Source of the DNA: Hyphomicrobiales bacterium
GTDB lineage: Bacteria; Pseudomonadota; Alphaproteobacteria; Rhizobiales; Beijerinckiaceae
Direction: 5' to 3'
Assembly: GCA_016716745.1 (NCBI GenBank)
Contig: JADJVD010000006.1
Location: forward strand, 53,840 to 117,839
DNA: 64,000 nucleotides
In this document: positions 3,389 through 33,563 of the stretch, one piece after another
Position numbering within the stretch: position 1 is the first letter of the stretch
Layout: the number at the start of each line of letters is the position of its first letter
Program-made: the position numbers and the translations under genes
Notes under the pieces: model-generated
The model's input: the letters and a program-made list of their open reading frames with translations, nothing else
Database searches by the model: none
Told to the model about the DNA's origin: nothing

Positions 3389-4639
3389 ATGGTCGATTTC
3401 AGGAACATGCGCATCGACGGCGCGCGCCTGTGGGACGCGCTGATGGAGATGGCGAAGATCGGCGGCACGCCGGCCGGCGGCTGCAACCGCCAGACGCTGA
3501 CCGATCTCGACCGGCAGGGGCGCGATCTGTTCGCCCGCTGGTGCCGCGAGGCGGGCATGACGATGCGCGTCGACAAGATGGGCAATATGTTCGCCCGCCG
3601 CCCCGGCCTCGACGACAAACTGGCGCCGGTGATGCTCGGCAGCCATCTCGACACCCAGCCGACCGGCGGCAAGTTCGACGGCGTGCTCGGCGTGCTCGGC
3701 GCGCTCGAGGTGGTGCGCAGCCTCAACGACATGAATGTGCGCACCCGCCGCCCGATCGAAGTCGCGAACTGGACCAACGAGGAGGGCGCGCGCTTCGCGC
3801 CCTCGATGATCGGCTCGGGCGTGTTCGCCGGGCATTATACGCTGGAGGAGGCCTACGCCGCGCGCGATCTCGAAGGCGCCGAATTCGGCGCCGAACTGAA
3901 GCGCATTGGCTATGTCGGCCCGGACGAGGCGGGCGGGCGGCCGATCCACGCCTATTTCGAGCTGCATATCGAGCAGGGCCCGATCCTCGAGGACGAGAAG
4001 ATCGACATCGGCGTCGTCACCCACGGCCAGGGCCAGCGCTGGTACGAATACGCGATCAAGGGATTCGAGAGCCATGCCGGCTCCACCCCGATGCCGCGCC
4101 GGCGCGACGCGCTGCTCGGCGCCGCGCGCATCGTCGAGCTCGTCAACCGCACTGCGCTCGCCCACCCGCCGCTGGCGATGGGCACCTGCGGGGTGATCGA
4201 GTCGAAACCCGGCTCGCGCAACGTCATCCCGGGCGAGGTGTTTCTCACCAGCGAATTCCGCCACCCGGACGACGCCGTGCTCAGCGCCATGGACAAGGCG
4301 CTGCGCGAGGGCGTGGCCGAGATCGCCGCGCGCGGCCGGCTCGAGATCGAGATGCGCGAGATTTCCTACTATCCGCCTGTGCCGTTCGAGGCGAGCTGCG
4401 TCGCCGCCGTTCGCCGCGCCGCGCAGGAGCTCGGCTATTCGCATCGCGACATCGTGTCGGGCGCAGGCCACGACGCCTGCTGGGTCGCGCTCGTCGCGCC
4501 GACGGCGATGATCTTCACGCCCTGCGTCGACGGCGTCAGCCACAACGAGAGCGAGACGATCTTGCCGGAATGGGCCAGCGCCGGCGCCGACGTGCTGCTG
4601 CGCGCCGCGCTCGAGAAGGCGGAAGTCGTCGCCGCCTGA
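3389..4639 (+). CDS. M20-family Zn-dependent hydrolase (N-carbamoyl-L-amino-acid hydrolase / allantoate amidohydrolase-like)
   Basis: 416-aa ORF. MGNMFARRPG, GSHLDTQPTGGKFDG and NWTNEEGARFAPSMIGSG are characteristic of AmaB/AllC-type amidohydrolases. Confidence 0.8.
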   Translation: MVDFRNMRIDGARLWDALMEMAKIGGTPAGGCNRQTLTDLDRQGRDLFARWCREAGMTMRVDKMGNMFARRPGLDDKLAPVMLGSHLDTQPTGGKFDGVLGVLGALEVVRSLNDMNVRTRRPIEVANWTNEEGARFAPSMIGSGVFAGHYTLEEAYAARDLEGAEFGAELKRIGYVGPDEAGGRPIHAYFELHIEQGPILEDEKIDIGVVTHGQGQRWYEYAIKGFESHAGSTPMPRRRDALLGAARIVELVNRTALAHPPLAMGTCGVIESKPGSRNVIPGEVFLTSEFRHPDDAVLSAMDKALREGVAEIAARGRLEIEMREISYYPPVPFEASCVAAVRRAAQELGYSHRDIVSGAGHDACWVALVAPTAMIFTPCVDGVSHNESETILPEWASAGADVLLRAALEKAEVVAA

Positions 4640-4868
4640 CAATCGCGTCCGCACGATGCGGCGCCGCGCAGGAATGCGACGACGCACAATGTGCGCGGCC
4701 GCACCTCCGCGCCGGCGCGCGCCGCGCTATCGGCTTCGTCCTGACGACGCCATAGGGGCGTCACACTTGTCCGTCACACCGTGAGCATCAACGCCGCGAC
4801 GTTACGCGACGACGGCGGGATCGTCGGCTTTCGGGCCGCGGTCGATCGACAAGCGATGGGAGAGGCGC

Positions 4869-5264
4869 ATGGCGCGGTCATTTGGCAAGGCGAGCGGGGA
4901 GGCGGACCCCACCATGATCGAGGATCTTCTGCACTCCTGCGCCTATGCGCCGGTCGCCCGCGCGGCGCTCGCCTCGATCGGCGGCGCCTTCGCGGAGGAG
5001 GTTCGCCGCTTCGCCGAGTCGCGCGACATGGCGGCCGGCGTGTTCGCCGCTCGTGCGGTCATTCGCTACGGCCGCCGGGCCACCGACGAGAGCCTTTTCG
5101 ACCTGGCGCGTCTGATGCAGGGCTCGGACCAGCCGGTTCTCGCCGGATTGCGCGAAATTCTGGCTCAGGCCATCGGCGAGCGGGACGCCGACGGGTCCGG
5201 ATCCCGCGAATCCTCGCCGCCGCCGAGGAGCCGCGCGTCCGAGAGGCCGCGCCTCTCGCTCTGA
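4869..5264 (+). CDS. hypothetical protein
   Basis: 131-aa ORF with a strong GC3 bias and GGGAGAGG 5 nt upstream of the ATG. I do not recognise a family. Confidence 0.4.
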   Translation: MARSFGKASGEADPTMIEDLLHSCAYAPVARAALASIGGAFAEEVRRFAESRDMAAGVFAARAVIRYGRRATDESLFDLARLMQGSDQPVLAGLREILAQAIGERDADGSGSRESSPPPRSRASERPRLSL

Positions 5265-5283
5265 GGTTCGCCGGCGGCGCCGA

Positions 5284-5748
5284 TCAGGCGTCGCCGACGG
5301 GCAGGGGGCGGTAATAGGCCGAGGCGACTTTCTCGAAGCGCCCGCGCAGCGAGGCCTCGAGCCCTGTTTCGGCGTCCTCGTCGCCGGCCCCGCCGCCGAT
5401 CTCCAGCACCACGCCCTTGCAGCCGCGCTCGCGGGCGATGCGCTCGGCGGCGGCGACGATGGCGGCGTTAAGCACCGGGCTCGGCACGCCGCTGCAGGCG
5501 AGCGCCTGAACCCTCAGGACCCGGCCGTGCCGGAGATCCTGCTCGACCTCGTGGGTGAACAGCGCATGGGCGTAGCCGCGCGAATCCTCGATGGCGACGA
5601 CGTCCGAGCCGGCGCCGGGGCGATCGCGCGCGTCGAGATAGGCGAGCCAGTCTTCGAGTTTCAGGGCGGGATCGAAAAAATGGACGAGCGCGAAACCGCG
5701 GCCGGCGCGGTCGCGCTCCAGTCGCACGGCGCGAAAGGCCCCCTCCAT
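5284..5748 (-). CDS. hypothetical protein, divergent from the FNR regulator gene
   Basis: ORF 5284..5811 trimmed to the internal Met (MEGAFRAVRLERD...). The longer version would cover the FNR box. Codon bias is coding-like and no family is recognised. Confidence 0.45.
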   Translation of the reverse strand: MEGAFRAVRLERDRAGRGFALVHFFDPALKLEDWLAYLDARDRPGAGSDVVAIEDSRGYAHALFTHEVEQDLRHGRVLRVQALACSGVPSPVLNAAIVAAAERIARERGCKGVVLEIGGGAGDEDAETGLEASLRGRFEKVASAYYRPLPVGDA

Positions 5749-5810
5749 AGTCCGCAGCCTCGAACCGATTTCTCCCACCAAGCAAAATAGGCTTGAGCCG
5801 TCCCCCCACA

Positions 5811-5824
5811 TTGATGCATATCAA
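5811..5824. promoter_or_regulatory. perfect FNR/FixK box TTGAT-GCAT-ATCAA in the divergent intergenic region
   Basis: Exact match to the TTGAT-N4-ATCAA consensus. It lies about 56 nt upstream of ATG 5874 and about 70 nt from the divergent ATG 5748. Confidence 0.7.
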
Positions 5825-5873
5825 CTCCGTCCGGGCGGCCGATCGCTCGGCCGCGTTCGACGTCGGCGGAGCG

Positions 5874-6632
5874 ATGGGAATGGCGAGAGTCTCGGCGCAT
5901 GACGGGGACGGGCCGCATTCCTTGCGGGTCGGGTGTTCGCATGCGACCTGCGAGACGATCTGCGCCGACTGCCCGGTGCGGGGGCTCGCCGTGTGCTCGG
6001 CGCTCGAGCCGGAGGAGCTCGACGAGTTCAGCCGCCTTTCCCAGACCGTGCATCTGCCCGGCAAGGCGACCCTGATCGCGCAGGACGAGGAAGCCGAATA
6101 CATCTTCAATCTGACAGCCGGGGTGGTGCGGCTTTACCGCCTGCTGTCGGACGGTCGCCGCCAGATCGTCGGCTTCGCCCTGCCGGGCGATTTTCTCGGC
6201 CTGGCGATGACGAAGCGCAACACCTTCTCGGCGGACGCGGTGGCCCCGGTCGCCGCCTGCCGCTTTCCGCGGGAGGTTTTTGCGCGCTATCTTGCGGAAA
6301 AGCCGCATCTTTTGCGGCGTCTGCATGAACTCTCCACGCACGAGCTGACGCTGGCGCAGGACCAGATGGTGCTGCTCGGCCGTCGCACGGCGGAGGAGAA
6401 GGTGGCCGCGTTCCTGATCGCCTTCCGCGACCGCTGGAGCCGCATCAACCAGGCGCATCTGCACATTCCGCTGCCGATGAGCCGGCAGGACATCGGCGAT
6501 TTCCTCGGCCTCACCGTCGAAACGGTGAGCCGGATGATGACGAAGCTCGCCCGCGACAAGGTGATCGTCATCGTCCCCGACGGGGTGCGCATTCTCGACG
6601 AGAAGAAGCTCGAATCGCTCTGCGCCGGCTGA
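5874..6632 (+). CDS. FNR-type CRP-family transcription regulator with an N-terminal Cys cluster (FnrN/FnrL-like oxygen sensor)
   Basis: ORF 5793..6632. The start was moved downstream of the FNR box to ATG 5874 (5880 is also possible). The N-terminal CSHATCETICADCPVRGLAVC resembles the FNR Cys pattern C-x3-C-x2-C-xn-C. A cNMP-like domain and a C-terminal HTH (SRQDIGDFLGLTVETVSRMMTKL) are present. Confidence 0.85.
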   Translation: MGMARVSAHDGDGPHSLRVGCSHATCETICADCPVRGLAVCSALEPEELDEFSRLSQTVHLPGKATLIAQDEEAEYIFNLTAGVVRLYRLLSDGRRQIVGFALPGDFLGLAMTKRNTFSADAVAPVAACRFPREVFARYLAEKPHLLRRLHELSTHELTLAQDQMVLLGRRTAEEKVAAFLIAFRDRWSRINQAHLHIPLPMSRQDIGDFLGLTVETVSRMMTKLARDKVIVIVPDGVRILDEKKLESLCAG

Positions 6633-6721
6633 AACCGGCTGGGCGGTTCGCGCGACGTTGAGTCGCGCGCCGGGATTTGGCGCAACTCGCCCGAAAGTGG
6701 CGCCTCGCGCCGACTAACCGC

Positions 6722-6735
6722 TTGACTTGAATCAA
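6722..6735 (+). promoter_or_regulatory. FNR/FixK box TTGAC-TTGA-ATCAA upstream of ccoN
   Basis: 9 of 10 match to TTGAT-N4-ATCAA, about 95 nt upstream of the ccoN ATG. This is the classic arrangement for fixNOQP/ccoNOQP promoters. Confidence 0.7.
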
Positions 6736-6827
6736 TGTTGGCGGGATTGCGGCAGACGATGTTGCGGCACAACAGGCGGGCGGAGTCGCATCCGCGCCCC
6801 CGCGCGCCTGCAGTTGGGGATAGGGCC

Positions 6828-8504
6828 ATGGCAGAATCCACGCTTGCAAGTCCGTCAGGCGGACCAATCAAGAGATCAATGACATTCGGCGAGATTGGCG
6901 TGTCGATCGCCTTGGTCGCGCTGGCTGCGCTCTCGCTGCTGATCGCGGCGAAGGCGTACACGCCCGAATATGCGTTCCACGCCTATCTGTTCGCCGCCGC
7001 GAGCGTCGGCGGAATCTACGCGATCGTCTCGCGCTACATGGGCGGCCGTCCGGTCGCGGCGCAGGAGATCGACGGCAAGCCGAACTACAACATGGGCCCG
7101 GTCAAGTTCGCCGCGCTCATCTCGATGTTCTGGGGCATCGCCGGCTTCCTCGTCGGCGTCATCATCGCCCTGCAGCTCGCCTATCCGGTCATGAATCTGG
7201 ACCTGCAGTGGATCCAGTTCGGCCGCCTGCGCCCGCTGCACACCTCCGCGGTGATTTTCGCCTTCGGCGGCAACGTGCTGCTCGCGACGTCCTTCTACGT
7301 CGTGCAGCGCACCTCGCATGCGCGCCTGGCCGGCGACCTCGCCCCGTGGTTCGTCATCCTCGGCTACAACTTCTTCATCCTGATCGCCGGCACGGGCTAC
7401 CTGCTCGGCATCTCGCAGAGCAAGGAATACGCCGAGCCGGAGTGGTACTCCGACCTCTTCCTCACCGTGGTGTGGGTCGCCTACCTGCTGGTCTTCCTGG
7501 CGACGCTCTGGAAGCGCAAGGAGCCGCACATCTACGTGGCGAACTGGTTCTATCTGGCCTTCATCGTCACCATCGCCGTGCTGCATCTCGGCAACAACGC
7601 CACGATCCCGGTTTCGATCTTCTCGGCGAAGTCGTACATCGTGTGGGCGGGCGTGCAGGACGCGATGTTCCAGTGGTGGTACGGCCACAACGCGGTCGGC
7701 TTCTTCCTCACCGCCGGCTTCCTCGCCATCATGTACTACTTCGTTCCGAAGCGGGCGAACCGTCCGGTGTATTCCTACCGGCTGTCGATCGTCCACTTCT
7801 GGGCGCTGATCTTCCTCTACATCTGGGCGGGCCCGCACCACCTGCACTACACCGCGCTGCCCGACTGGGCGCAGACCCTCGGCATGACCTTCTCGATCAT
7901 GCTGTGGATGCCCTCGTGGGGCGGCATGATCAACGGCCTGATGACGCTGTCGGGCGCCTGGGACAAGCTGCGCACCGATCCGGTGCTGCGCATGATGGTG
8001 GTGTCGGTCGCGTTCTACGGCATGTCGACCTTCGAGGGTCCGCTCATGTCGATCAAGGTCGTGAACTCGCTCTCGCACTACACCGACTGGACGGTCGGTC
8101 ACGTGCATTCGGGCGCGCTCGGCTGGGTCGGCTTCGTCTCCTTCGGCGCGCTCTACTGCCTCGTCCCGTGGCTGTACAACCGTCCGGGCCTGTACTCGCT
8201 GAAGCTGGTGAACTGGCACTTCTGGATCGCGACCCTCGGCATCGTGCTCTACATCAGCTCGATGTGGGTGGCGGGCATCATGCAGGGCCTGATGTGGCGC
8301 GCCTACACCTCGCTCGGCTTCCTTGAGTACTCGTTCATCGAGACGGTCGAGGCGATGCACTACTTCTACGTCATCCGTGCGCTCGGCGGCGCCTTGTTCC
8401 TCGTCGGCGCGCTGATCATGGCGTGGAATCTCTACAAGACGATCACCTCGCCGAGCGTCGAGGCGGTTCCGGCGGGCCGTTCGCAGCTCGCCCCGGCGGA
8501 GTGA
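6828..8504 (+). CDS. ccoN: cbb3-type cytochrome c oxidase subunit I
   Basis: ORF 6735..8504 with the start moved to ATG 6828 (MAESTLASP...), downstream of the FNR box. It is a multi-TM heme-copper oxidase sequence ([35 protein letters not shown]). Confidence 0.95.
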
Positions 8505-8511
8505 CATCATC

Positions 8512-9258
8512 ATGGCTGCACACGACACCTCATTCTGGTCCAAGCACCAGATCCTCGAGAAGAACTCGATCATCCTGGTCATCGGCATCCTGCTGATGAT
8601 CTCGGTGGGCGGTATCGTCGAAATCGCGCCGCTCTTCTATCTGAAGAGCACGATCGAAAAGGTGGGAGGGGTCCGCCCCTACACCCCGCTAGAGCTCGCC
8701 GGCCGCGACATCTATGTGCGTGAAGGGTGCTACACCTGCCACTCGCAGATGATCCGCGCGCTGAAGGACGAGGTCGAACGCTACGGCCACTACTCGCTGG
8801 CGGCCGAGAGCATGTACGACCACCCCTTCCAGTGGGGCTCGAAGCGTAACGGGCCGGATCTCGCCCGCGTCGGCGGCAAGTATTCGGACGACTGGCAGCG
8901 CGCGCATCTCGCCGCGCCCCGCTCGGTCGTTCCGGGTTCGATCATGCCGAATTACGCCTTCCTGTTCGACCGTGAGCTCCGCCTGGAGCATCTGGGCGAG
9001 CACATGACGATCCAGTCGATCGAGGGCGTGCCCTATACGCAGGAGCAGATCGCCAATGCGGCCGTGGACGCGGCGGCGCAACTCAACCCGGACGACAAGA
9101 ACGCCTCGGCTTTCGCCAAGCGTTGGCCGACCGCGGTTGTGCGCACTGTCGCCAAGCCCGGCAAGATCACCGAAGCGGACGCCGTCGTCGCGTATCTCCA
9201 GATGCTCGGCACGCTCGTCGACTTCAAGATCTACGACGAAAAGGCGAACCTGCGCTGA
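8512..9258 (+). CDS. ccoO: cbb3-type cytochrome c oxidase subunit II (monoheme)
   Basis: 248 aa, N-terminal TM anchor, single heme c site CYTCHSQMIR. It starts 8 nt after ccoN. Confidence 0.95.
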   Translation: MAAHDTSFWSKHQILEKNSIILVIGILLMISVGGIVEIAPLFYLKSTIEKVGGVRPYTPLELAGRDIYVREGCYTCHSQMIRALKDEVERYGHYSLAAESMYDHPFQWGSKRNGPDLARVGGKYSDDWQRAHLAAPRSVVPGSIMPNYAFLFDRELRLEHLGEHMTIQSIEGVPYTQEQIANAAVDAAAQLNPDDKNASAFAKRWPTAVVRTVAKPGKITEADAVVAYLQMLGTLVDFKIYDEKANLR

Positions 9259-9282
9259 CGCGCGACAATCGGGAGCGGCTTC

Positions 9283-9435
9283 ATGGGTGCGATGTATACC
9301 TGGGTGCAACTTGCGGCGCTGATCGGCGTCTGCCTCACCTTCGGTCTGATCGTTCTCTACGCACTGTGGCCGGGCAACCGGAGCCAGTTCGATGAAGCCG
9401 CTCAAGTGCCCTTCAAAGAGGATTCGGAGCCATGA
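9283..9435 (+). CDS. ccoQ: cbb3-type cytochrome c oxidase small subunit
   Basis: Absent from the ORF track. ATG 9283 to TGA 9435 reads MGAMYTWVQLAALIGVCLTFGLIVLYALWPGNRSQFDEAAQVPFKEDSEP (50 aa, one TM helix). Its stop overlaps the ccoP start (ATGA), and it sits in the canonical position between ccoO and ccoP. Confidence 0.8.
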   Translation: MGAMYTWVQLAALIGVCLTFGLIVLYALWPGNRSQFDEAAQVPFKEDSEP

Positions 9436-10322
9436 GCTCACATAACGATCATGCTGCGCCGGTCGATCCGGTCACCGGCATGGCCACGACGGGCCACAGC
9501 TGGGACGGGATCAGCGAACTGAACACGCCGCTTCCGAAATGGTGGCTGTGGATTTTCTACGCGACCATCGTCTGGGCGCTCGGCTACTTCGTCGTCTATC
9601 CGTCCTGGCCGCTCGCGCAGGGCTACATGCCGGGCATCTGGAACTGGTCGTCGCGCGCCGCCGTGTCGGCGGACGTGGCCGAGCTCCAGAAGATGCGGTC
9701 TGCCGACAACGCCAAGCTGGCGGCGATGCCGCTGGCGGACGTCGCCAAGGACCCGAAAATGCTCGCCTTCGCCCAGGCGCAGGGCAAGGCGGCCTTCGGC
9801 GACAACTGCGCGCCGTGCCACGGCGCGGGCGGCGGCGGCGCCAAGGGCTACCCCAACCTGAACGACGACGACTGGTTGTGGGGCGGCAAGATCGACCAGA
9901 TTCTCGAGACCATCGCGGTCGGCATCCGGTCCACCCACGCCCAGACCCGCGCCGGCGCGATGACCGCCTTCGGCGCGGCCCCCTCGCCGATCCTCAACAA
10001 GGACCAGATCGGCCAGGTCGCCGATTACGTCCTGTCGCTGTCGGGCAAGGCGGATCCGAAGGCCGACGTGAAGGCCGGCCAGCAGATTTTCGCCGAGAAC
10101 TGCGCCGTCTGCCACGGCGATAACGCCAAGGGAAATCAGGACCTTGGCGCGCCGAACCTGACGGATGCGATCTGGCTCTACGGGGCGGACAAGGCCACGA
10201 TCGTCGAGGCTGTGACCAACGGTCGCGGCGGGGTCATGCCGACTTGGAGCGGCCGACTCGATGACACAACTATCAAGTCGCTGGCCGTCTACGTCCACAC
10301 GCTCGGCGGCGGCGTGAAGTAA
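9432..10322 (+). CDS. ccoP: cbb3-type cytochrome c oxidase subunit III (diheme)
   Basis: 296 aa, N-terminal TM, two CxxCH sites (CAPCHG, CAVCHG). Confidence 0.95.
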   Translation: MSSHNDHAAPVDPVTGMATTGHSWDGISELNTPLPKWWLWIFYATIVWALGYFVVYPSWPLAQGYMPGIWNWSSRAAVSADVAELQKMRSADNAKLAAMPLADVAKDPKMLAFAQAQGKAAFGDNCAPCHGAGGGGAKGYPNLNDDDWLWGGKIDQILETIAVGIRSTHAQTRAGAMTAFGAAPSPILNKDQIGQVADYVLSLSGKADPKADVKAGQQIFAENCAVCHGDNAKGNQDLGAPNLTDAIWLYGADKATIVEAVTNGRGGVMPTWSGRLDDTTIKSLAVYVHTLGGGVK

Positions 10323-10331
10323 CTGTCCTGT

Positions 10332-10353
10332 CCGTCGCTTTTCGGGGCGACGG
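10332..10353 (+). terminator. weak hairpin after ccoP (CCGTCGC-N8-GCGACGG followed by TTGAAAT)
   Basis: 7-bp stem read directly from the sequence, with a poor U-tract. It may only attenuate between ccoNOQP and ccoGHIS. Confidence 0.3.
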
Positions 10354-10455
10354 TTGAAATCGCGGCGCGGGGGAGTAGGTATCGTCGCCATGGCGACGCC
10401 GCCTCCGCGCCGTGCGCTTTTTCGGACACCAGCCGGCGGGGCCGGTGAGGAAAGG

Positions 10456-11949
10456 ATGCGACGAATGAGCCTCGGCGTTGAGCGGGCCCCCACACCCGCG
10501 CCCTCCGCTGACGCGCCGGCCGTGGTGAGCGCCGACGACATCGAACTTTATCGTTCGAGACGGAAGATCTACCCCAGAGCACGCACGGCCGCTTCCGCTC
10601 CATCAAATGGGCGCTGCTGATCGTCACGCTCGGCATCTACTATTTCATGCCGCTCATCCGCTGGGATCGCGGCCCGCATTCGCCGAGCCAGGCGGTGCTG
10701 CTCGATATGCCGAACCGTCGCTTCTATTTCTTCTGGATCGAGATCTGGCCGCAGGAAGTCTATTTCATCACCGGCCTGCTGATCCTCGCCGCGCTGACGC
10801 TGTTCCTGATGAACGCGGTCGCCGGCCGCGTCTGGTGCGGCTATCTGTGCTGGCAGACGGTGTGGACCGATCTGTTCCAGATGATCGAGCGCTGGACGGA
10901 GGGCGACCGCCGCGAGCACTACAAGGCCGACCAGCAGCCCTGGACCGCCCAGCGAGTCGGCCGCCGGGCCCTGAAGTACCTGCTCTGGCTGATGGTCGCC
11001 TGGTGGACGGGCGGCGCCTGGGTTCTCTACTTCTCGGACGCGCCGACGCTCGTGAAGCAGCTCCACCTTCGAGGCGCCCACCATCGCCTACATCTGGATC
11101 GGCATCCTGACGGTGACGACCTTCGTGTTCGGCGGCTTGATGCGCGAGCAGGTGTGCATCTACATGTGCCCGTGGCCGCGCATTCAGGCCGCGCTCACGG
11201 ACGAGCACGCGCTCAACGTCACCTATCGCTATGATCGCGGCGAGCCGCGCATGTCGGTCAAGAAGGCGACCTCGCTGCGCGCCGCCGGCAAGCCGGCCGG
11301 CGATTGCGTCGATTGCGACCAGTGCGTCGCCGTGTGCCCGACGGGCGTCGACATCCGCAAGGGCCTGCAGCTCGATTGCATCCAGTGCGGCCTCTGCATC
11401 GACGCCTGCAACAACGTCATGGCCAAGATCGGTCGCCCGGCGGATCTCATCGCCTACGACACCGACATCAACGTCAAGCGTCGTCAGGCGGGTCAGGCCG
11501 AAGAGTTCCACATCATGCGGCCGCGCACATGGCTGTATGCGGGCCTCATCGCGCTCGTCGCGGGCATCATGCTGGCGGCGCTGCTGATGCGCAACGACGT
11601 CGGCGTCAACGCGATGCATGATCGCAACCCGATCTTCGTCAGCCTGTCAGACGGCTCGTTGCGCAACGCCTATACGGTCAACCTCCTCAACAAGAGGTCC
11701 GAGCCGCGCACCTTCGTCCTGCAGGTCGACAATCTGCCCGGCGCCAAGGTGGAGACGGCGGGCCAGGCGGGTGAGGAAAACGGCTCTCCGGTGATCGAGG
11801 TCGGCCCCGACCAGTCGCGCCAGATGCGCGTGCTGATCACCATGCCGCCGGGCGCCAAGGTCGCCGCGCAGACGCCGATCAGCTTCAAACTCGTCGACAA
11901 GAAGACCGGCCGCGTCGCCACGCACGCCGACCACTTCTTCGGTCCGTAA
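10456..11949 (+). pseudogene. ccoG: cbb3 oxidase assembly ferredoxin/cupric reductase CcoG (FixG), reading frame interrupted twice
   Basis: Three collinear FixG-like segments lie in frames 1, 0 and 1. The first is MRRMSLGVERAP...ELYRSRRKIYP (from ATG 10456, with GAGGAAAGG upstream). The second is QSTHGRFRSIKWALLIVTLGIYYFMPLIRWDRGP...RRFYFFWIEIWPQEVYF...GRVWCGYLCWQTVWTDLF...APTLVKQL. The third is TFEAPTIAYIWIGILTVTTFVFGGLMREQVCIYMCPWPRIQ...CVDCDQCVAVCPTG...CIQCGLCIDAC to the stop at 11949. The junctions are at the C-run 10572-10575 and near 11061-11066. The total length is a multiple of 3. Confidence 0.85.
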
Positions 11950-25915: not shown

Positions 25916-26703
25916 TGGCCGAAGGTTCTGCGGCGGTTCCTGCAGTCAGCGTCCGTGATCTGCGCAAGAGCTTCGGCGCGCTCGAAGTGCTGAAGGGCGT
26001 CTCGTTCGACGCCCATGACGGCGACGTGATCTCCATTCTCGGCGCCTCGGGCTCGGGCAAGAGCACGCTGCTGCGCTGCATCAACATGCTGGAGACGCCG
26101 AGCGCGGGCGACGTCGTGGTCGCCGGCGAGACGATCAAGCTGCGCCAGCGCCGCGACGGGCGGGTGGAGCCGGCGGACCATCGCCAGATCGACCGCATCC
26201 GCAGTGGCCTGTCGATGGTGTTCCAGGGATTCAACCTGTGGTCGCACATGACGGTGCTCCAGAACGTCATGGAGGCGCCCGTGCATGTGCAGAAGCGCCC
26301 GAAGGCCGAGGTGCGGGACGAGGCGATGGCGCTGCTCGCCAAGGTCGGCATCGCCGACCGGGCCGGCTACTACCCCTCGCATCTTTCCGGCGGCCAGCAG
26401 CAGCGCGCGGCCATCGCCCGGGCGCTGGCGATGAAGCCGAAAGTGATGCTGTTCGACGAGCCGACCTCCGCGCTCGACCCCGAACTCGTGGGCGAGGTTC
26501 TGCGCGTTATGCGGGCAATTGCCGAAGAAGGTCGCACGATGCTCGTCGTCACCCACGAAATGGGCTTCGCCCGCGACGTGTCGAACCGCGTCCTGTTCCT
26601 GCATCAGGGGCAGATCGAGGCGGACGGGCCGCCGCAGGAGCTGTTCGGCGCGTCGAAATCGGAGCGTTTTCGCCAGTTCATCGCCCGTCACGCCCAGGGC
26701 TGA
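25915..26703 (+). CDS. ABC transporter ATP-binding protein (HisP-like)
   Basis: MAEGSAAVPAVSVRDLRKSF... with Walker A GASGSGKST, signature LSGGQQQR and Walker B MLFDEPTSALD. Its ATG overlaps the previous TGA. Confidence 0.95.
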   Translation: MAEGSAAVPAVSVRDLRKSFGALEVLKGVSFDAHDGDVISILGASGSGKSTLLRCINMLETPSAGDVVVAGETIKLRQRRDGRVEPADHRQIDRIRSGLSMVFQGFNLWSHMTVLQNVMEAPVHVQKRPKAEVRDEAMALLAKVGIADRAGYYPSHLSGGQQQRAAIARALAMKPKVMLFDEPTSALDPELVGEVLRVMRAIAEEGRTMLVVTHEMGFARDVSNRVLFLHQGQIEADGPPQELFGASKSERFRQFIARHAQG

Positions 26704-26745
26704 ACCTGCATCCGGACGTTTGGCGCAGGCGAGCATGCCGCTTGC

Positions 26746-26760
26746 TGGCATATCGCTTGC
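26746..26760 (+). promoter_or_regulatory. candidate sigma-54 (-24/-12) promoter TGGCAT-N5-TTGC
   Basis: TGGCATATCGCTTGC matches the TGGCAC-N5-TTGC spacing exactly and ends 57 nt upstream of GTG 26818. No enhancer-binding protein gene is seen nearby. Confidence 0.35.
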
Positions 26761-26817
26761 CTATAAACTGATCGCGGCGCCTGCTGTCGGGCGCGACGTG
26801 GGGCATGGAGAGCGCGC

Positions 26818-28254
26818 GTGGCGGGGCCGGGACTGCGGTTCGACGAAATGGGCGGGCAGGGCGAGGCCGTCCGCCAGACTTACGAGCGTCTCGCGCAATG
26901 GCTGAACGACACGCCTGCCGACCTGCTCGCCTCGCGGCGTCGGCAGGCCGAACTGCTGTTCCGCCGCATCGGCATCACCTTCGCCGTCTATGGCGACAAG
27001 GAGGCGACCGAGCGCCTCATCCCCTTCGACATCGTGCCGCGCATTCTCTCGCGCGCGGAGTGGGACCGGCTGGAGAAGGGCCTGATCCAGCGCGTGCGCG
27101 CGCTCAACATGTTCCTCGCCGACGTGTATGGCGCGCGCGAGATTCTGCGCGCCGGAATCGTGCCGGCCGATCTCGTCTACAAGAACCCTGGCTACCGCCC
27201 CGAGATGGCGGGTCGCCCGGTTCCGCACGACGTTTACGTCCACATCGCCGGCATCGACATCATCCGCGTCGACGAGCGGGATTTCTACGTTCTCGAGGAC
27301 AATGCGCGCACGCCTTCGGGCGTCTCCTACATGCTCGAGAACCGCGAAGTGATGATGCGGCTCTTCCCCGAGCTGTTCGCCAACCACCGCGTCGCCCCGG
27401 TCGAGAACTATCCCGACGCGCTGCTGGCGACGCTGCGCTCCGTCGCCCCGCGCACCGCGGGCCGCGATCCGGCGGCGGTGCTGCTGACGCCGGGACAGTT
27501 CAATTCGGCCTATTACGAGCACTCGTTCCTGGCCGACAAGCTCGGCGTCGAACTCGTCGAGGGGCGCGATCTCTTCGTGCAAGACGACGTGGTCTACATG
27601 CGCACGACCGAGGGGCCGCGTCGCGTCGACGTGATCTACCGCCGCATCGACGACGACTTCCTGGATCCGCTCGCCTTCCGTCCCGACTCGGCGCTCGGCG
27701 TGCCCGGCCTCATGCACGCCTATCAGGCGGGCAACGTCACGCTGTGCAACGCGGTCGGCACGGGCGTCGCCGACGACAAGGCGATCTACACCTACATGCC
27801 GGACGTGATCCGCTTCTACCTCAACGAGGAGCCGATCCTGAAGAACGTGCCGACATGGCGCTGCCGCGAGGCGGACGCGTTGAAATATGTGCTCGACAAT
27901 CTCGGCGATCTCGTCGTCAAGGAGGTCAACGGCTCGGGCGGCTACGGCATGCTCGTCGGCCCGCATGCGAGCAAGGCCGAGATCGAGAGTTTCCGCGCCA
28001 AGCTCGCGCGCGATCCGGCGAACTTCATTGCTCAACCGACGCTCTCGCTCTCCACGGTGCCGACCTCGTTCGACGAGGGCGTGCGCCCGCGTCATGTCGA
28101 TCTGCGGCCGTTCGTGCTGTCGGGCTCGGACGGTGTGCGCGTGGTGCCGGGCGGGCTCACCCGCGTCGCCATGAAAGAAGGATCGCTCGTCGTCAATTCC
28201 AGTCAGGGCGGAGGCACGAAGGACACCTGGGTGCTCGACGATCTGGGAGCCTGA
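26818..28254 (+). CDS. circularly permuted ATP-grasp type 2 protein (DUF404/DUF407)
   Basis: 478 aa. The sequence (GITFAVYGDKEATERLIPFDIVPRIL, VVKEVNGSGGYGML, GGLTRVA) is typical of this family. It is the first gene of a tight four-gene cluster. Confidence 0.85.
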   Translation: MAGPGLRFDEMGGQGEAVRQTYERLAQWLNDTPADLLASRRRQAELLFRRIGITFAVYGDKEATERLIPFDIVPRILSRAEWDRLEKGLIQRVRALNMFLADVYGAREILRAGIVPADLVYKNPGYRPEMAGRPVPHDVYVHIAGIDIIRVDERDFYVLEDNARTPSGVSYMLENREVMMRLFPELFANHRVAPVENYPDALLATLRSVAPRTAGRDPAAVLLTPGQFNSAYYEHSFLADKLGVELVEGRDLFVQDDVVYMRTTEGPRRVDVIYRRIDDDFLDPLAFRPDSALGVPGLMHAYQAGNVTLCNAVGTGVADDKAIYTYMPDVIRFYLNEEPILKNVPTWRCREADALKYVLDNLGDLVVKEVNGSGGYGMLVGPHASKAEIESFRAKLARDPANFIAQPTLSLSTVPTSFDEGVRPRHVDLRPFVLSGSDGVRVVPGGLTRVAMKEGSLVVNSSQGGGTKDTWVLDDLGA

Positions 28255-28293
28255 CGCCGCGCCGCTGACGCCATCGAATTTCGGACCCATTCC

Positions 28294-29250
28294 ATGCTTT
28301 CGCGCACCGCCGACAATCTTTACTGGCTCGCCCGCTACATGGAGCGGGCGGATTATCTCGCCCGCGTCGTCGAGGTGACGCGCCGCATGGCCAATCTGCC
28401 GCGCGCCTATGGCGGCGTCGCGACGGAATGGGACAGCGCGCTGATTTCCTCCGGCGCGGAGGAGGCCTTCGCGGCGACGGGCCTCGAGCCGAACGAGACC
28501 AACGTCACCTGCTTCCTCACCTTCGACGAGAACAACCCGTCGTCGATCCGCAACTGCATCGAGCTTGCGCGCACCAACGCGCGCGCCGTGCGCACCGCGC
28601 TGACGCACGAGATGTGGGAGGCGATCAACGGCGGCTGGCTCGAGATCCGGCGGTTCGACGCGCGCCGCAACGGGCAGGGCATGCTCGACGCCGAAGACCT
28701 GACGCAGTTCCTCGAACTCGTGAAGGAAGTGTCGGTTCAGTTCGACGGTTCGGCCTACCGCACCATGCTGCGCAACGACGCCTACTGGTTCTCGCGTCTC
28801 GGCATGTATGTCGAGCGCGCCGACAACACCGCGCGCATTCTGGACGTGAAGTATCACGTGCTGCTGCCCGATGTGGAGACGATCGGCGGCTCGCTCGACT
28901 ATTTCCAGTGGACCTCGGTGCTGCGCGCGGTGTCGGCGCTGACCGCCTATCACTGGGTCTATCGTCAGAGCATCAAGCCCTGGCTGATCGCCGATCTGCT
29001 CATCCTCAAGGCCGAGATGCCGCGCTCATTGCTCTCCTGCTACGAGAACATCTCGCACTTTCTCGATCTCATCGGCAAAGCCTATGGCCGGCAGGGCCTC
29101 GCCCAGCGTCAGGCCCGCCAGCTCTATGCGCGTCTCGAACATGCGCGCATCGAGGAGATTTTCCAGACCGGCCTGCACGAATTCATCACCGCCTTCATCG
29201 ACGACAACAATCGCATCGGCGGCAGGATCGCCGAGCAATATCTGGTGTGA
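28294..29250 (+). CDS. alpha-E domain protein (DUF403)
   Basis: 318 aa. It begins MLSRTADNLYWLARYMERADYLARV, the hallmark start of alpha-E proteins. Confidence 0.85.
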   Translation: MLSRTADNLYWLARYMERADYLARVVEVTRRMANLPRAYGGVATEWDSALISSGAEEAFAATGLEPNETNVTCFLTFDENNPSSIRNCIELARTNARAVRTALTHEMWEAINGGWLEIRRFDARRNGQGMLDAEDLTQFLELVKEVSVQFDGSAYRTMLRNDAYWFSRLGMYVERADNTARILDVKYHVLLPDVETIGGSLDYFQWTSVLRAVSALTAYHWVYRQSIKPWLIADLLILKAEMPRSLLSCYENISHFLDLIGKAYGRQGLAQRQARQLYARLEHARIEEIFQTGLHEFITAFIDDNNRIGGRIAEQYLV

Positions 29251-29256
29251 GGCGCC

Positions 29257-30069
29257 ATGCGTCTGCGCGTTCGCAACGAGATCGTCTGCCGCTACCGGCC
29301 GGCCGCGACCAACGTCGTCGGCCTGATGCGGCTCACCCCGCGCGACCATTACGGACAGCATGTGATCGACTGGTCGATCGACGTCAGCGTCGATTGCCGT
29401 CTGCGCGTCTCGGAGGACGCCTTCGGCAATCAGGCGCACGCCTTCGAGGTGACGGGCCCGCTCGAAACGTTGACGATCGAGGCGACGGGCGAGGTCGACC
29501 TGTTCGACTCCACCGGCTTCGTGCGCGACGCCATCGAACGCTTTCCGGTCGAGCTTTATCTGCGCGAGACGCAGGCGACCGCGGCCGATCTCGCCCTGCG
29601 CGCCTTCGCCGACGAGGCGATGGCCAAAGCGCCGGCGCCGCTCGGCGCCATGCACGCGCTGATGGGCGCGTTGCACGAGCGCGTGACGTGCGATCCCGCC
29701 GCAGCGCCGGTCGACAGCGCGAGCGCCGCCTTCGCCGCCAGGTCCGGCGCGGCGGCGGATCTCGCGCACGCCTTCATCGCCGCCGCGCGGCATTCGGGCG
29801 CGCCGGCCCGTTTCGTCTCGGGCTACGCGGCCGATCCGCAAGGCGAGGGCGCGAGCGCGCACGCCTGGGCCGAGGTCTGGCTCGACGAATATGGCTGGAT
29901 CGCCTTCGATCCGGCGGCCAACGTCTGCCCGCACGGGCGGCATCTGCGCGTCGCGATTGGCCTCGAGCGGCTCGGCGCGGCGCCCCTGCGCAGCGTGCGC
30001 GGCGGCTATGGCGAAGAGCAGGTGGCGTCCGAGGTCGCCTTCGTCGCGCCATACCGGCAGGAACAATAG
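29257..30069 (+). CDS. transglutaminase-like cysteine peptidase family protein
   Basis: 270 aa with a transglutaminase-core pattern (ARFVSGY...AHAWAEVWL...GWIAFDP). Confidence 0.8.
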   Translation: MRLRVRNEIVCRYRPAATNVVGLMRLTPRDHYGQHVIDWSIDVSVDCRLRVSEDAFGNQAHAFEVTGPLETLTIEATGEVDLFDSTGFVRDAIERFPVELYLRETQATAADLALRAFADEAMAKAPAPLGAMHALMGALHERVTCDPAAAPVDSASAAFAARSGAAADLAHAFIAAARHSGAPARFVSGYAADPQGEGASAHAWAEVWLDEYGWIAFDPAANVCPHGRHLRVAIGLERLGAAPLRSVRGGYGEEQVASEVAFVAPYRQEQ

Positions 30070-30162
30070 CCGCCTTGAGAATGGCCGCCCCGCCGACAGT
30101 TGCCTTGCGGGGCCGGGCGCGACGCGCTATCGGCCGCGCATGAACCGCTGGAACCTGATCCG

Positions 30163-30912
30163 ATGACCTATTGCTGCGGCGTCCTCGTGCGCGAGGGGCT
30201 GGTGATGATCGCCGACACGCGCACCAATGCGGGCCTCGACGACATCTCCACCTTCCGCAAGCTGCACAACCTCTCCGAGCCTGGCGAGCGGCTGATCTCC
30301 ATCGCCAGCGCGGGCAACCTGTCGATCACCCAGAGCGTCGTGTCGCTGGCGAGCGAGGGGCTCGAGAATCCGGAGACCGGCGTCGTCGAGCGCCTGTCGG
30401 ATGTCGGCTCGATGTTCAAGGCCGCGCAACTGCTCGGCCGCTGCATCCGCAAGGTGCGCGACATCGAGGGCGCGGCGCTCGACAGAATGGACATCGCCTT
30501 CAAGATCACGCTGCTCGTCGGCGGTCAGATCAGGGGCGACCGCCTGCGCCTGTTCATGCTGTATTCGGCCGGCAACTTCATCGAATGCACGCCGGACGCG
30601 CCGTTCCTGCAGATCGGCGAACACAAATACGGCAAGCCGATTCTCGACCGGGCCGTGACCTTCGACACCGAGCTGTACGACGCGCTGAAGATCGGCCTTA
30701 TCTCGATGGATTCGACGATGCGCTCCAATCTCGGCGTCGGCATGCCGATCGACGTGCTGGTGATGCGCCGCGACGCGCAGCTCGCCGAGGTCGATCATCG
30801 CATCGATTCCAGCGACGCCTATTTCCGCGATCTGCGCGACCGCTGGTCGTCGGCGCTGCGCGCCGCGCATATCGCGATTCCGAAGCCGCCTTACGGCGCC
30901 GGCGCGCCGTGA
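30163..30912 (+). CDS. Anbu (ancestral beta-subunit) proteasome-type peptidase
   Basis: Internal ATG of ORF 30100..30912. MTYCCGVLVREGLVMIADTRTNAG has Thr directly after the initiator Met, as in Ntn-hydrolase/proteasome beta-like proteins. Confidence 0.8.
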   Translation: MTYCCGVLVREGLVMIADTRTNAGLDDISTFRKLHNLSEPGERLISIASAGNLSITQSVVSLASEGLENPETGVVERLSDVGSMFKAAQLLGRCIRKVRDIEGAALDRMDIAFKITLLVGGQIRGDRLRLFMLYSAGNFIECTPDAPFLQIGEHKYGKPILDRAVTFDTELYDALKIGLISMDSTMRSNLGVGMPIDVLVMRRDAQLAEVDHRIDSSDAYFRDLRDRWSSALRAAHIAIPKPPYGAGAP

Positions 30913-30924
30913 CGGCGCCGCGCT

Positions 30925-32028
30925 TCACGCCTCCAGCAACGCGCGCACATGGCGCGCGATGGCGAGCGAGGCGGTGAGCCCGGGCGATTCGATTCCGAAC
31001 AGATGCGCCAGCCCCGTGAGCCCATGCGCGCGCGGACCCTGGATGAGAAAGTCCTGCGTCCCCGCCTCGGGCGGCGCGATCTTCGGGCGCACGCCCGCAT
31101 AGCCGGGCGCCAGCGCCCCGTCCGGCAGGGCCGGCCAGTAGCGGCGGATCGCGGCGTAGAATGTGTCGCCGCGCGCGGGATCGACCGCATAGTCGAGCCG
31201 CTCGATCCATTCGACGTCCGGCCCGAATTTCGCCTGCCCGCCGAGATCGAGCGTCAGATGCACGCCGAGCCCGCCGGGCTGCGGCACGGGATAGATCAGC
31301 CGTGTGAACGGCGAGCGCCCCGTCAGCGTGAAATAATTGCCCCTGGCGAAGAAGGCGCGCGGGGCGAGCCGCGCGTCGTAGCCGGCCATGCCCTGCGCCA
31401 GGGCCGGCGCGCCATGGCCGGCGGCGTTGATCAGCCTGTCGCAGGCGAGCGTCATCGCCTCCGCCCCGCCTGTCTCGACGACGAAGCCGCGCGCCCCTGC
31501 CGCGATGCGCGTCACCGGCGCGTGAAAGGCGAACATCGCGCCTGCCGCCTCCGCCTCGCCCTTCAGCGCCAGCATGTAGCCGTGGCTGTCGATCACGCCG
31601 GTCGAGGGCGAGACGAGCGCCCCCGCGCAGGCGAGCGCCGGCTCCATCGCCAACGCCTCGTCGCGCGAGATCGCGCGCAGATCGTCGACGCCGTTGGCCG
31701 CCGCCCGCGCCCGGATCGAGTCGAGCGTGGCGACTTCCGCCGCGTCCGCCGCCACGATCAGCTTGCCGCAGCGCCGATGCGCGATCCCGTGCGCGGCGGC
31801 GTAATCGTAGAGCAGGGCGCGCCCCTCGACGCAGAGCCGCGCCATCAGCCCGCCCTTCGGATAGTAGATGCCGGCGTGGATCACTTCGGAATTGCGCGCC
31901 GAGGTCTCCATGCCGAAGGACTCGTTGGCCTCCAGCACGACGACCTCGCGCCCCGACAACGCCAGCTCGCGCGCGATGGCGAGCCCGACGACGCCGGCCC
32001 CGATGACGATGGTGTCGACTCGCTCCAT
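30925..32028 (-). CDS. FAD-dependent oxidoreductase (L-2-hydroxyglutarate oxidase/dehydrogenase-like)
   Basis: 367 aa with an N-terminal dinucleotide fold, [19 protein letters not shown]. Confidence 0.8.
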
Positions 32029-32131: not shown

Positions 32132-33130
32132 ATGCGCCCCGACGAATTGCGCTTTTCCGTCGCCCCGATGCTCGATTGGACGGACCGGCATTGCCGGATG
32201 CTCCATCGCGGCCTGTCGCGGCGCGCGCGGCTTTACACCGAGATGGTGACGACGGGCGCGATCATTCACGGCGACCGGGCGCGCTTGCTCGGCTTCGATT
32301 CGCGCGAGCAGCCCGTCGCGCTGCAACTCGGCGGCTCGGACCCTGCCGATCTCGCCGCCTGCGCCCGCATCGGCGCGGCGGAGGGCTATGCCGAGATCAA
32401 CCTGAATTGCGGCTGCCCGTCCGACCGGGTGCAGAACGGCGCCTTCGGCGCCTGCCTGATGAAGTCGCCGGCCGCCGTCGCCGAGGCCGTGGCCGCGATG
32501 AAGGGCGCCGTGCGCATCCCGGTGACGGTGAAGTGCCGCATCGGCGTCGACGATCAGGAGCCGCGCGAGGCGCTGTTCGCCTTCGCGCAGGCGGTGATCG
32601 CCGCCGGCGCCGACGCGCTGATCGTCCACGCCCGAAAGGCCTGGCTGCAAGGCCTGTCGCCGCGCGAGAACCGCGACGTGCCCCCGCTCGACTATCCGCT
32701 GGTGCGCGACCTCAAGCGCGCCCATCCCGCGACGCCGGTCGTGCTGAACGGCGGCCTCGCCGATCTCGATCGGGCGAAGGCGGAGATCGAGGGGCTCGAC
32801 GGCGCGATGCTCGGCCGCGCCGCCTACCAGTCTCCCGAGCTGCTGCTGCGGGTCGACCCGGACTGGTTCGGCGAACCGGCCCCGGCCGCGGACGCCTTCG
32901 AGGCGGTCGAGGCCTATGTCCCGTATATGGAGGCGCAGCTCGCCGCCGGCGTGCGCCTCGCCGACATGACGCGCCACATGCTCGGCCTGTTCGCGGGACG
33001 GCCCGGCGCGCGGCTCTGGCGGCGCCATCTGGCGACCGAGGCGGTCAAGCGCGGCGCCGGTCTCGACGTCCTGCACGCCGCCCTCGCGCATGTGAAACGC
33101 CCCACGGAGACGGATCGCGATGCAGCCTGA
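32132..33130 (+). CDS. dusA: tRNA-dihydrouridine(20/20a) synthase
   Basis: 332 aa. FSVAPMLDWTDRHCR and EINLNCGCPSDRVQNGAFGACLM are DusA signatures. Confidence 0.9.
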   Translation: MRPDELRFSVAPMLDWTDRHCRMLHRGLSRRARLYTEMVTTGAIIHGDRARLLGFDSREQPVALQLGGSDPADLAACARIGAAEGYAEINLNCGCPSDRVQNGAFGACLMKSPAAVAEAVAAMKGAVRIPVTVKCRIGVDDQEPREALFAFAQAVIAAGADALIVHARKAWLQGLSPRENRDVPPLDYPLVRDLKRAHPATPVVLNGGLADLDRAKAEIEGLDGAMLGRAAYQSPELLLRVDPDWFGEPAPAADAFEAVEAYVPYMEAQLAAGVRLADMTRHMLGLFAGRPGARLWRRHLATEAVKRGAGLDVLHAALAHVKRPTETDRDAA

Positions 33131-33563
33131 GACGACGCTCGACCCCGCTATCGAGGCCAAGGTGCGCGCCAGCTTCGCCGCGCAATCGGCGATGCGCACC
33201 ATCGGGGCGCGGCTCGCGTCGGTGCGGCCCGGCGCGGTCGAGATCGAGTTGCCGGCGGCCGATCACATCAACCAGCAGCAAGGCTTCGCGCATGGCGGCG
33301 TGATCGGCATGATCCTCGACAGCGCCTGCGGCTACGCCTCCTTCACGACGATGCCGCTCGACTGCGAGGTCGTCAGCATCGAGTACAAGATCAACTTCCT
33401 GCGCCCCGCCGTCGGCGAGCGCTTCGTGGCGCGCGGGCGGGTGACGCGGCCGGGCCGCACTGTCGCCGTGGCGCAGGGGGAGGTGGTGGCGGTGACGAAC
33501 GGCGCCGAGCAGACGGTGGCCGTCATGCTGGCGACGATGGCGGTGGTGAAGGCGCCGGCTTGA
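33120..33563 (+). CDS. PaaI-family hotdog-fold thioesterase
   Basis: 147 aa with the GFAHGGVIGMILDSACGYA motif. Confidence 0.8.
   Translation: MQPETTLDPAIEAKVRASFAAQSAMRTIGARLASVRPGAVEIELPAADHINQQQGFAHGGVIGMILDSACGYASFTTMPLDCEVVSIEYKINFLRPAVGERFVARGRVTRPGRTVAVAQGEVVAVTNGAEQTVAVMLATMAVVKAPA

Follow-up and report, generated by a model that had tools for sequence, protein, structure and literature searches.

What does an Anbu operon do when one of its presumed enzymes has lost its nucleophile? The question is raised by four adjacent genes in the window, by which we mean the whole stretch of DNA analysed (64,000 nucleotides (nt) of contig JADJVD010000006.1 from a Hyphomicrobiales bacterium). They encode a circularly permuted ATP-grasp protein, an Alpha-E protein, a transglutaminase-like protein and the proteasome-like hydrolase Anbu, and together they form a canonical Anbu-1 operon, a cluster already known as a kind, in an uncultured alphaproteobacterium of Methylobacteriaceae/Beijerinckiaceae type. 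Nothing is new in it as a cluster. What the analysis adds is modest and lies in three features: a recurrent loss of the catalytic nucleophile of the transglutaminase-like protein, a predicted sigma-54 promoter found across the order and a glutamine-rich tail.

The transglutaminase-like protein matches Pfam Bact_transglu_N (2.1e-16), an N-terminal beta-sandwich, and Transglut_core (4.6e-24), the papain-like core. Its AlphaFold2 model (predicted local distance difference test, pLDDT, 93.3; predicted TM-score, pTM, 0.91) is closest to 3ISR (TM-score 0.77, Foldseek E 1.7e-19), a putative cysteine protease of Cytophaga hutchinsonii with the same two-domain fold, whose catalytic His and Asp align with those of the window protein. 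The nucleophile differs. The active-site stretch reads GAAADLAH in the window protein, in contrast to GVCQDFAH in relatives and GVCRDFAH in 3ISR, and Ala166 falls in the column of the Cys of 3ISR and of Pseudomonas aeruginosa TgpA (6G49). In the model this residue stands at the N-terminus of helix 166-179, which is the location of papain-like and transglutaminase nucleophiles. Instead of a Cys-His-Asp triad, the protein carries Ala166, His202 and Asp218. This is no sequencing slip, since the Ala is common to the window protein, an 86%-identical metagenomic protein and a same-genus copy. Because Ala166 replaces the catalytic Cys, the transglutaminase-like protein is predicted to be a homologue unable to act as a thiol transglutaminase or protease. 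The original prediction of a complete cluster holds for gene content; it fails for this protein, whose catalytic Cys is missing. Most likely the protein is kept for a non-catalytic role, for example in binding or as an adaptor. Such a role is known from band 4.2 (erythrocyte protein 4.2), a transglutaminase relative that is not catalytic and lacks the active-site Cys; its fold is kept as a structural or binding protein. Band 4.2 is found among the weaker structural matches of the window protein (TM-score ~0.33), and differs from it in being eukaryotic, multidomain and outside any ligase/hydrolase operon.

Among the 120 closest homologue clusters, 49 lacked the Cys (38 Ala, 4 Ser, 3 Gly, 3 Pro and 1 Phe), with His and Asp invariant in all 120. 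In the order's species-representative genomes, 16 of 80 copies linked to Anbu were also without it; Asp was present in every one, and His was lost in two (L120 and L121). A class-wide genome sample, described below, gave 4 of 40 copies without Cys and invariant His and Asp (40/40). Most of ~140 representatives lacked the Cys, the full triad being found in 52, with His lost in some and Asp nearly invariant; these are the site-covering members of the best 150 clustered at 50% identity, a sample that over-weights fast-evolving lineages and query-like sequences. Among these representatives (P0124-P0273), ten Cys-less ones have Ser in place of the nucleophile and retain His and Asp; they may use the transglutaminase fold as a Ser-His-Asp hydrolase. 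The genome of the window has three other transglutaminase-like genes, all with their Cys.

A tree of 75 operons, computed from the remaining three proteins, requires a minimum of five changes of the Cys state. One of its clades comprises the window, its two congeners and two additional genomes, and since all five members are without Cys, the loss is old there. A tie between Cys loss and the presence of Anbu was considered and rejected: in the class-wide sample, Cys was missing from 2 of 28 Anbu-linked and from 2 of 12 Anbu-less triads. The repeated changes of the Cys state, together with a loss of the gene itself on at least two occasions, indicate that the thiol chemistry of this transglutaminase is dispensable in nature, and they weaken models centred on a cysteine transglutaminase or protease activity. 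Positions of the features discussed here and below are collected in Table 1.

Table 1. Features of the Anbu-1 operon and of its paralogous system (window coordinates, unless a contig is named)
Feature	Position	Strand	Basis
Sigma-54-type -24/-12 element, TGGCAT-ATCGC-TTGC, near-consensus, 58 nt upstream of the ATP-grasp GTG	26746-26760	+	Sequence
Circularly permuted ATP-grasp protein (COG2308-type amidoligase), 478 aa, GTG start	26818-28254	+	Pfam, PDB 3N6X
Alpha-E protein (COG2307), 318 aa, ATG start	28294-29250	+	Pfam PF04168
Transglutaminase-like protein, 270 aa, ATG start	29257-30069	+	Pfam, AlphaFold2 model, 3ISR
Ala166 codon at the catalytic Cys position	29752-29754	+	Alignments with relatives, 3ISR and TgpA 6G49
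Kept triad members, His202 (29860-29862) to Asp218 (29908-29910)	29860-29910	+	Homologue alignments
C-terminal tail Y-R-Q-E-Q and stop codon, disordered, Gln-rich	30052-30069	+	Model, Gln counts
Anbu (Anbu-1 type proteasome-like N-terminal nucleophile (Ntn) hydrolase), 249 aa, ATG start, Met-Thr	30163-30912	+	PDB Anbu structures
Second ATP-grasp/Alpha-E/transglutaminase system, same genome	contig C2 ~3688-10506	-	Paralogues, outside the window

The layout proposed originally, four tightly spaced co-directional genes, was borne out: the list of open reading frames (ORFs) and their translations give four ORFs on the + strand at the predicted limits (26818-30912), separated by 39, 6 and 93 nt. 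Third-codon-position G+C is 0.86-0.88 in each of the four, as in other real genes of this genome, which has 68% G+C. The GTG at 26818 is the earliest start codon of the ATP-grasp ORF past an in-frame stop at 26764-26766, and it is preceded 6 nt upstream by GGAGAG. An alternative start of Anbu at the in-frame TTG at 30100 is not supported, the MTY start being found in all 22 relatives compared. Downstream, a convergent gene for a flavin adenine dinucleotide (FAD)-dependent oxidoreductase ends 12 nt past the Anbu stop codon, and the unit therefore consists of exactly four genes.

Profile and structure-database searches agreed with all four family assignments of the original prediction. The ATP-grasp protein matches Pfam CP_ATPgrasp_2 (PF14403) at 1.7e-171 over model positions 1-374 of 374, CP_ATPgrasp_1 at 3.6e-160 and the solved Methylobacillus protein PDB 3N6X at 9e-210; it is 60-89% identical to the copies in related operons. 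The Alpha-E protein, a member of an all-helical family encoded beside the ATP-grasp gene, matches PF04168 at 3.1e-93 over model positions 1-294 of 294, and its translation carries an ER motif twice (YMERAD and YVERAD). In a paralogous system on contig C2 of the same genome, an 819-aa open frame fuses ATP-grasp to Alpha-E, which argues that these two proteins act together. An ATP-grasp homologue encoded in the Anbu operon of Yersinia bercovieri liberates phosphate from ATP (PMC6376114). NCBIfam held no model for three of the four operon proteins, and gave Anbu sub-threshold proteasome-alpha matches only.

Anbu itself was recognized by comparison with five solved Anbu sequences, matched with E-values from 1e-62 to 1.7e-78 along essentially the full protein: 5LOY (1.7e-78, query residues 2-244), 5NYJ (5.7e-70), 5NYF, 5NYW and 5LOX. 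This full-length similarity extends through the region of helix H5 at the C-terminus. With the generic Proteasome model of Pfam the score was 22.2 bits, just under the gathering cut-off of 22.4. The N-terminus reads MTYCCGV, with no propeptide. The putative nucleophile Thr directly after Met, as originally predicted, is invariant in the 22 relatives, as are M1, D18 and K33 (precursor numbering; Asp17 and Lys32 in the mature protein), and the catalytic residues of Anbu appear intact. The S1 pocket (T20, F30, S48, L52, T55) fits the Anbu-1 pattern with two conservative changes, the amphiphilic pocket of P. aeruginosa Anbu being T20, F30, T48, L52 and S55 (Fuchs 2017, PMC5666114). The P. aeruginosa protein binds epoxomicin and MG132 (PMC5666114). 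No gene for an AAA+ ATPase is present in the four-gene operon. Assembly into an open split ring or a helical dodecamer is typical of the Anbu family.

Of 41 related genomes, 23 contain Anbu. The loci surveyed around Anbu homologues in the family and order of the window numbered 103, and 76 of these had the complete four-gene order, in genera that include Methylobacterium, Bosea, Bradyrhizobium, Rhodoplanes and Afipia. Anbu stood alone in ~20 of the 103, short contigs among these. Two loci of same-family genomes (L030 in G006 and L033 in G015) miss the transglutaminase gene alone and keep ligase, Alpha-E and Anbu; in L030, a second ATP-grasp paralogue, 32% identical, lies just downstream of Anbu. 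The class-wide sample, an even sample of 300 alphaproteobacterial genomes, gave 40 genomes with the orthologous triad of ATP-grasp, Alpha-E and transglutaminase, with Anbu downstream in 28 and not in 12. Since the same order recurs in 76/103 related and 28/40 class-wide loci, the four-gene arrangement is far beyond chance, and the conserved co-occurrence assumed in the original prediction is real. An apparent fusion of transglutaminase to Anbu in L120 and an apparent internal stop in the Anbu gene of L041 proved to be artefacts of coordinate handling. In two loci the transglutaminase gene and Anbu are separated by inserted genes unrelated to the operon: an extracytoplasmic function (ECF) sigma factor with DUF6596, a YCII protein and a LysR regulator in L026 (2314-5566), and an opposite-strand Zn-dehydrogenase-like oxidoreductase in L135 (4676-5770). 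Anbu is therefore separable from the other three genes.

The operon is said to have been described by Iyer et al. in 2009. Earlier and later descriptions are those of Valas & Bourne 2008, Fuchs et al. 2017 and Piasecka et al. 2018 (PMC3235984, PMC5666114, PMC6376114), and our search of the literature found no later functional paper on the Anbu operon. Although the operon has been known since 2008 and Anbu structures were solved by three groups, it has no established substrate, activity or physiological role (PMC8665760). The original prediction had likewise presented the cluster as already described and its role as unsolved.

Expression of the operon was approached from its upstream region. 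A sigma-54-type element sits in the 114-nt gap upstream of the ligase gene and follows the GG-N10-GC scheme in a context resembling TGGCAC-N5-TTGC. Of 74 related operons, 53 have its pattern TGG-N8-TTGC in the 220 nt preceding the ATP-grasp gene; the reverse strand gave 3, and shuffled sequences gave 1.05 on average (maximum 5). Across operons the TGG and TTGC are kept and the spacer bases vary. No sigma-70-like promoter was found in 26500-31200, and inside the operon there was no terminator excess, no Rfam family and no significant fold. The -24/-12 site is thus, as far as can be read from the sequence, the only promoter-like element at the operon, and it appears conserved across the order. 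The genome encodes the corresponding factors above curated cut-offs, rpoN at C1:317680-319173 (410.6 bits) and ntrC at C4:451099-452541 (698.3 bits), with three further NtrC-like matches. These features fit the published induction in Pseudomonas putida, where PP_2685-2688 (Anbu, transglutaminase and two hypothetical proteins) are 11-37-fold up under nitrogen limitation, a response assigned to NtrB/NtrC (PMC7801951; also PMC5666114, PMC6376114). In Burkholderia cenocepacia, a paralogous transglutaminase cluster, equivalent to the contig C2 system, is sigma-54/NtrC-controlled (PMC5491218). The best-supported reading is that the four genes would form one RpoN-dependent transcript induced by nitrogen limitation. 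If so, the conserved promoter carries the nitrogen-limitation link beyond Pseudomonas into the Hyphomicrobiales, and it points to the condition and the mutants in which a phenotype might be sought.

No activator site common to the operons was found upstream of the sigma-54 element. A palindrome, TGCT-N9-AGCA, lies ~88 nt upstream of the -24 element in the Bradyrhizobium clade only (L060, L071, L076, L079, L080, L083, L089, L094, L097 and L119) and is absent from the window; it is a candidate for a clade-specific site bound by an enhancer-binding protein. Scanning the whole genome for sigma-54 sites with a crude ORF filter gave too noisy a result to define a regulon.

The third feature is the C-terminal tail of the transglutaminase-like protein. 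Residues 266-270 have pLDDT <50 and are the sole disordered part of the model. In 119 alphaproteobacterial transglutaminase-like proteins, one row of which (L120) was mis-extracted, Gln accounts for 25% of the final 12 residues versus 3.0% of the rest; at least two Gln occur within these 12 residues in 98 proteins, and the final residue is Gln in 51 and Ser in 34 (mostly ...QS). Triads with no Anbu carry the tail too; neither the contig C2 paralogues nor the most degenerate of the Cys-less copies (L120, L121) have it. The conserved tail offers a concrete candidate site for mass spectrometry, and its conservation motivates a speculative reading of it as a ligase target site. The transglutaminase-like protein would then be the system's own substrate or primer, its tail modified or extended by ATP-grasp/Alpha-E and trimmed by Anbu, in a RimK- or Pup-like cycle induced by nitrogen starvation. 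We regard this as quite improbable; if true, it would explain the repeated loss of the Cys despite the persistence of His, Asp and tail. The resemblance to Pup-Dop-PafA or RimK-type modification is an analogy only: an ATP-dependent amide ligase, a disordered C-terminal tail bearing Gln/Glu and a proteasome-type hydrolase occur together. The window system has no Pup homologue, and the PafA ligase has a glutamine-synthetase-like fold, unlike ATP-grasp.

Taken jointly, these data are best explained, with a probability that we put at about 55%, by an RpoN-driven Anbu-1 operon for nitrogen recycling, made of an ATP-grasp/Alpha-E ligase, the Anbu hydrolase and a transglutaminase-like adaptor without thiol chemistry. 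The four genes would be transcribed as one RpoN-dependent unit switched on by an enhancer-binding protein, of which NtrC acting under nitrogen limitation, as in P. putida, would be the likeliest. ATP-grasp and Alpha-E would jointly form an ATP-dependent amide-bond ligase acting on a peptide or protein carboxylate, and Anbu would cleave the peptide or isopeptide bond so formed, or a related one. The transglutaminase-like protein would serve, as does band 4.2, as a binding or adaptor subunit, here for a partner containing Gln or Glu. The overall role would be the recycling of nitrogen at the protein or peptide level during starvation.

Several observations weigh against this explanation. The sigma-54 element is missing in 21 of the 74 related operons, the Bosea clade included, and no NtrC-like palindrome was found in 26500-26760, upstream of the window promoter; because no NtrC-type upstream site is recognisable in the window, the identity of the activator is a guess. 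In vitro, no Anbu has shown activity on any substrate and no complex of operon proteins was detected (PMC6376114; PMC5666114). The transglutaminase gene evolves ~2-3 times faster than its neighbours; a partly relaxed selection on it is therefore real, and the protein may have merely a residual role. The main alternative to a non-catalytic role, a partly decayed relic, builds on this last point. In its strict form the gene would be functionless and only ATP-grasp, Alpha-E and Anbu would matter in this lineage. The nucleophile is lost, the gene has been deleted in L030 and L033, and His and the Gln tail have also gone from some Cys-less copies (L120, L121). In the same-genus comparison the transglutaminase is the fastest-evolving of the four genes, with 63% identity and a ratio of nonsynonymous to synonymous substitution rates (dN/dS) of 0.49, which is also the value for the window against L021, as compared to 83-88% and 0.19-0.26 for the other three. 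Within the Cys-less clade its dN/dS is 0.42-0.57, versus 0.13-0.36 for the three neighbours. These values nevertheless stay below 1, and the transglutaminase is the fastest-evolving gene in Cys-bearing operons too. All five members of this deeply diverged clade retain the gene as an open, full-length frame, His202 and Asp218 are unchanged throughout the 120 closest clusters and the 40 class-wide operons, the structural model is confident and the Q-x-Q C-terminus is kept. A functionless relic is, in our view, distinctly unlikely.

Two further proposals would change the roles of the enzymes or the extent of the unit. ATP-grasp/Alpha-E could join a low-molecular-weight amine to a carboxylate, giving a product of gamma-glutamyl-amine or glutathionylspermidine type with no protein tagged, and Anbu, together with the transglutaminase-like protein where that is active, would be amidohydrolases that free nitrogen. 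Such small-molecule scavenging would suit regulation of the nitrogen-limitation type, the failure of standard peptides to reveal a peptidase activity of Anbu and the existence of Ntn hydrolases that are non-peptide amidases (PMC6376114 for both). The structure nearest to the ligase, 3N6X, was deposited as a 'putative glutathionylspermidine synthase', and an ATP-binding cassette (ABC) importer of amino-acid type (permease and ATPase genes) lies directly upstream of the operon. The importer, however, ends in a stop codon of its own and precedes the sigma-54 site; characterized Anbu forms a large multi-subunit assembly and binds peptide-like proteasome inhibitors (PMC5666114), and the transglutaminase-like protein, with its Gln-rich tail and beta-sandwich domain, points to macromolecular partners. 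We consider this proposal unlikely. It is very improbable that the four genes are not one transcription unit and that Anbu, from a promoter of its own in the 93-nt gap, has a separate role. The gap between transglutaminase gene and Anbu is indeed the largest of the operon, here and in relatives (median ~128 nt), it has received the unrelated genes of L026 and L135, Anbu is found alone in ~20 related loci, and PP_2685 (Anbu) of P. putida is less induced than PP_2686-2688 (PMC7801951). Against this, order and strand are kept in 76/103 loci, and a search of the gap for a regulatory RNA, a promoter or a terminator found nothing: its 93 nt gave no sigma-70 or sigma-54 match, no terminator and no Rfam match, with a fold z-score of +0.63.

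The window operon was further compared with related systems. The canonical proteobacterial Anbu operon (P. putida PP_2685-2688; Anbu of P. aeruginosa, Y. bercovieri and Hyphomicrobium) has the same four families in the same order, and is also alike in the Anbu-1 active site and S1 pocket, in having neither propeptide nor AAA+ partner and in regulation of the nitrogen-limitation type. It differs from the window operon in two respects, since here the transglutaminase-like protein has an Ala at the nucleophile position and regulation is predicted from the sigma-54 element.

The second system of the same genome, on contig C2, stands further apart. Its ligase is 36% identical to that of the window, with paralogous Alpha-E and transglutaminase-like proteins; it has no Anbu and no sigma-54 motif upstream. 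Its small transglutaminase has an intact Cys (GVCQDFAH), as has an extra, large transglutaminase-like protein with an open frame of ~1155 aa (GSCRDSAW).

Just beyond the convergent oxidoreductase gene lie, at 32132-33563 of the window, genes for a dihydrouridine synthase (Dus) and then for a 4HBT thioesterase. In many alphaproteobacteria the dus gene (nifR3) precedes ntrBC; in the present genome, ntrC is on contig C4.

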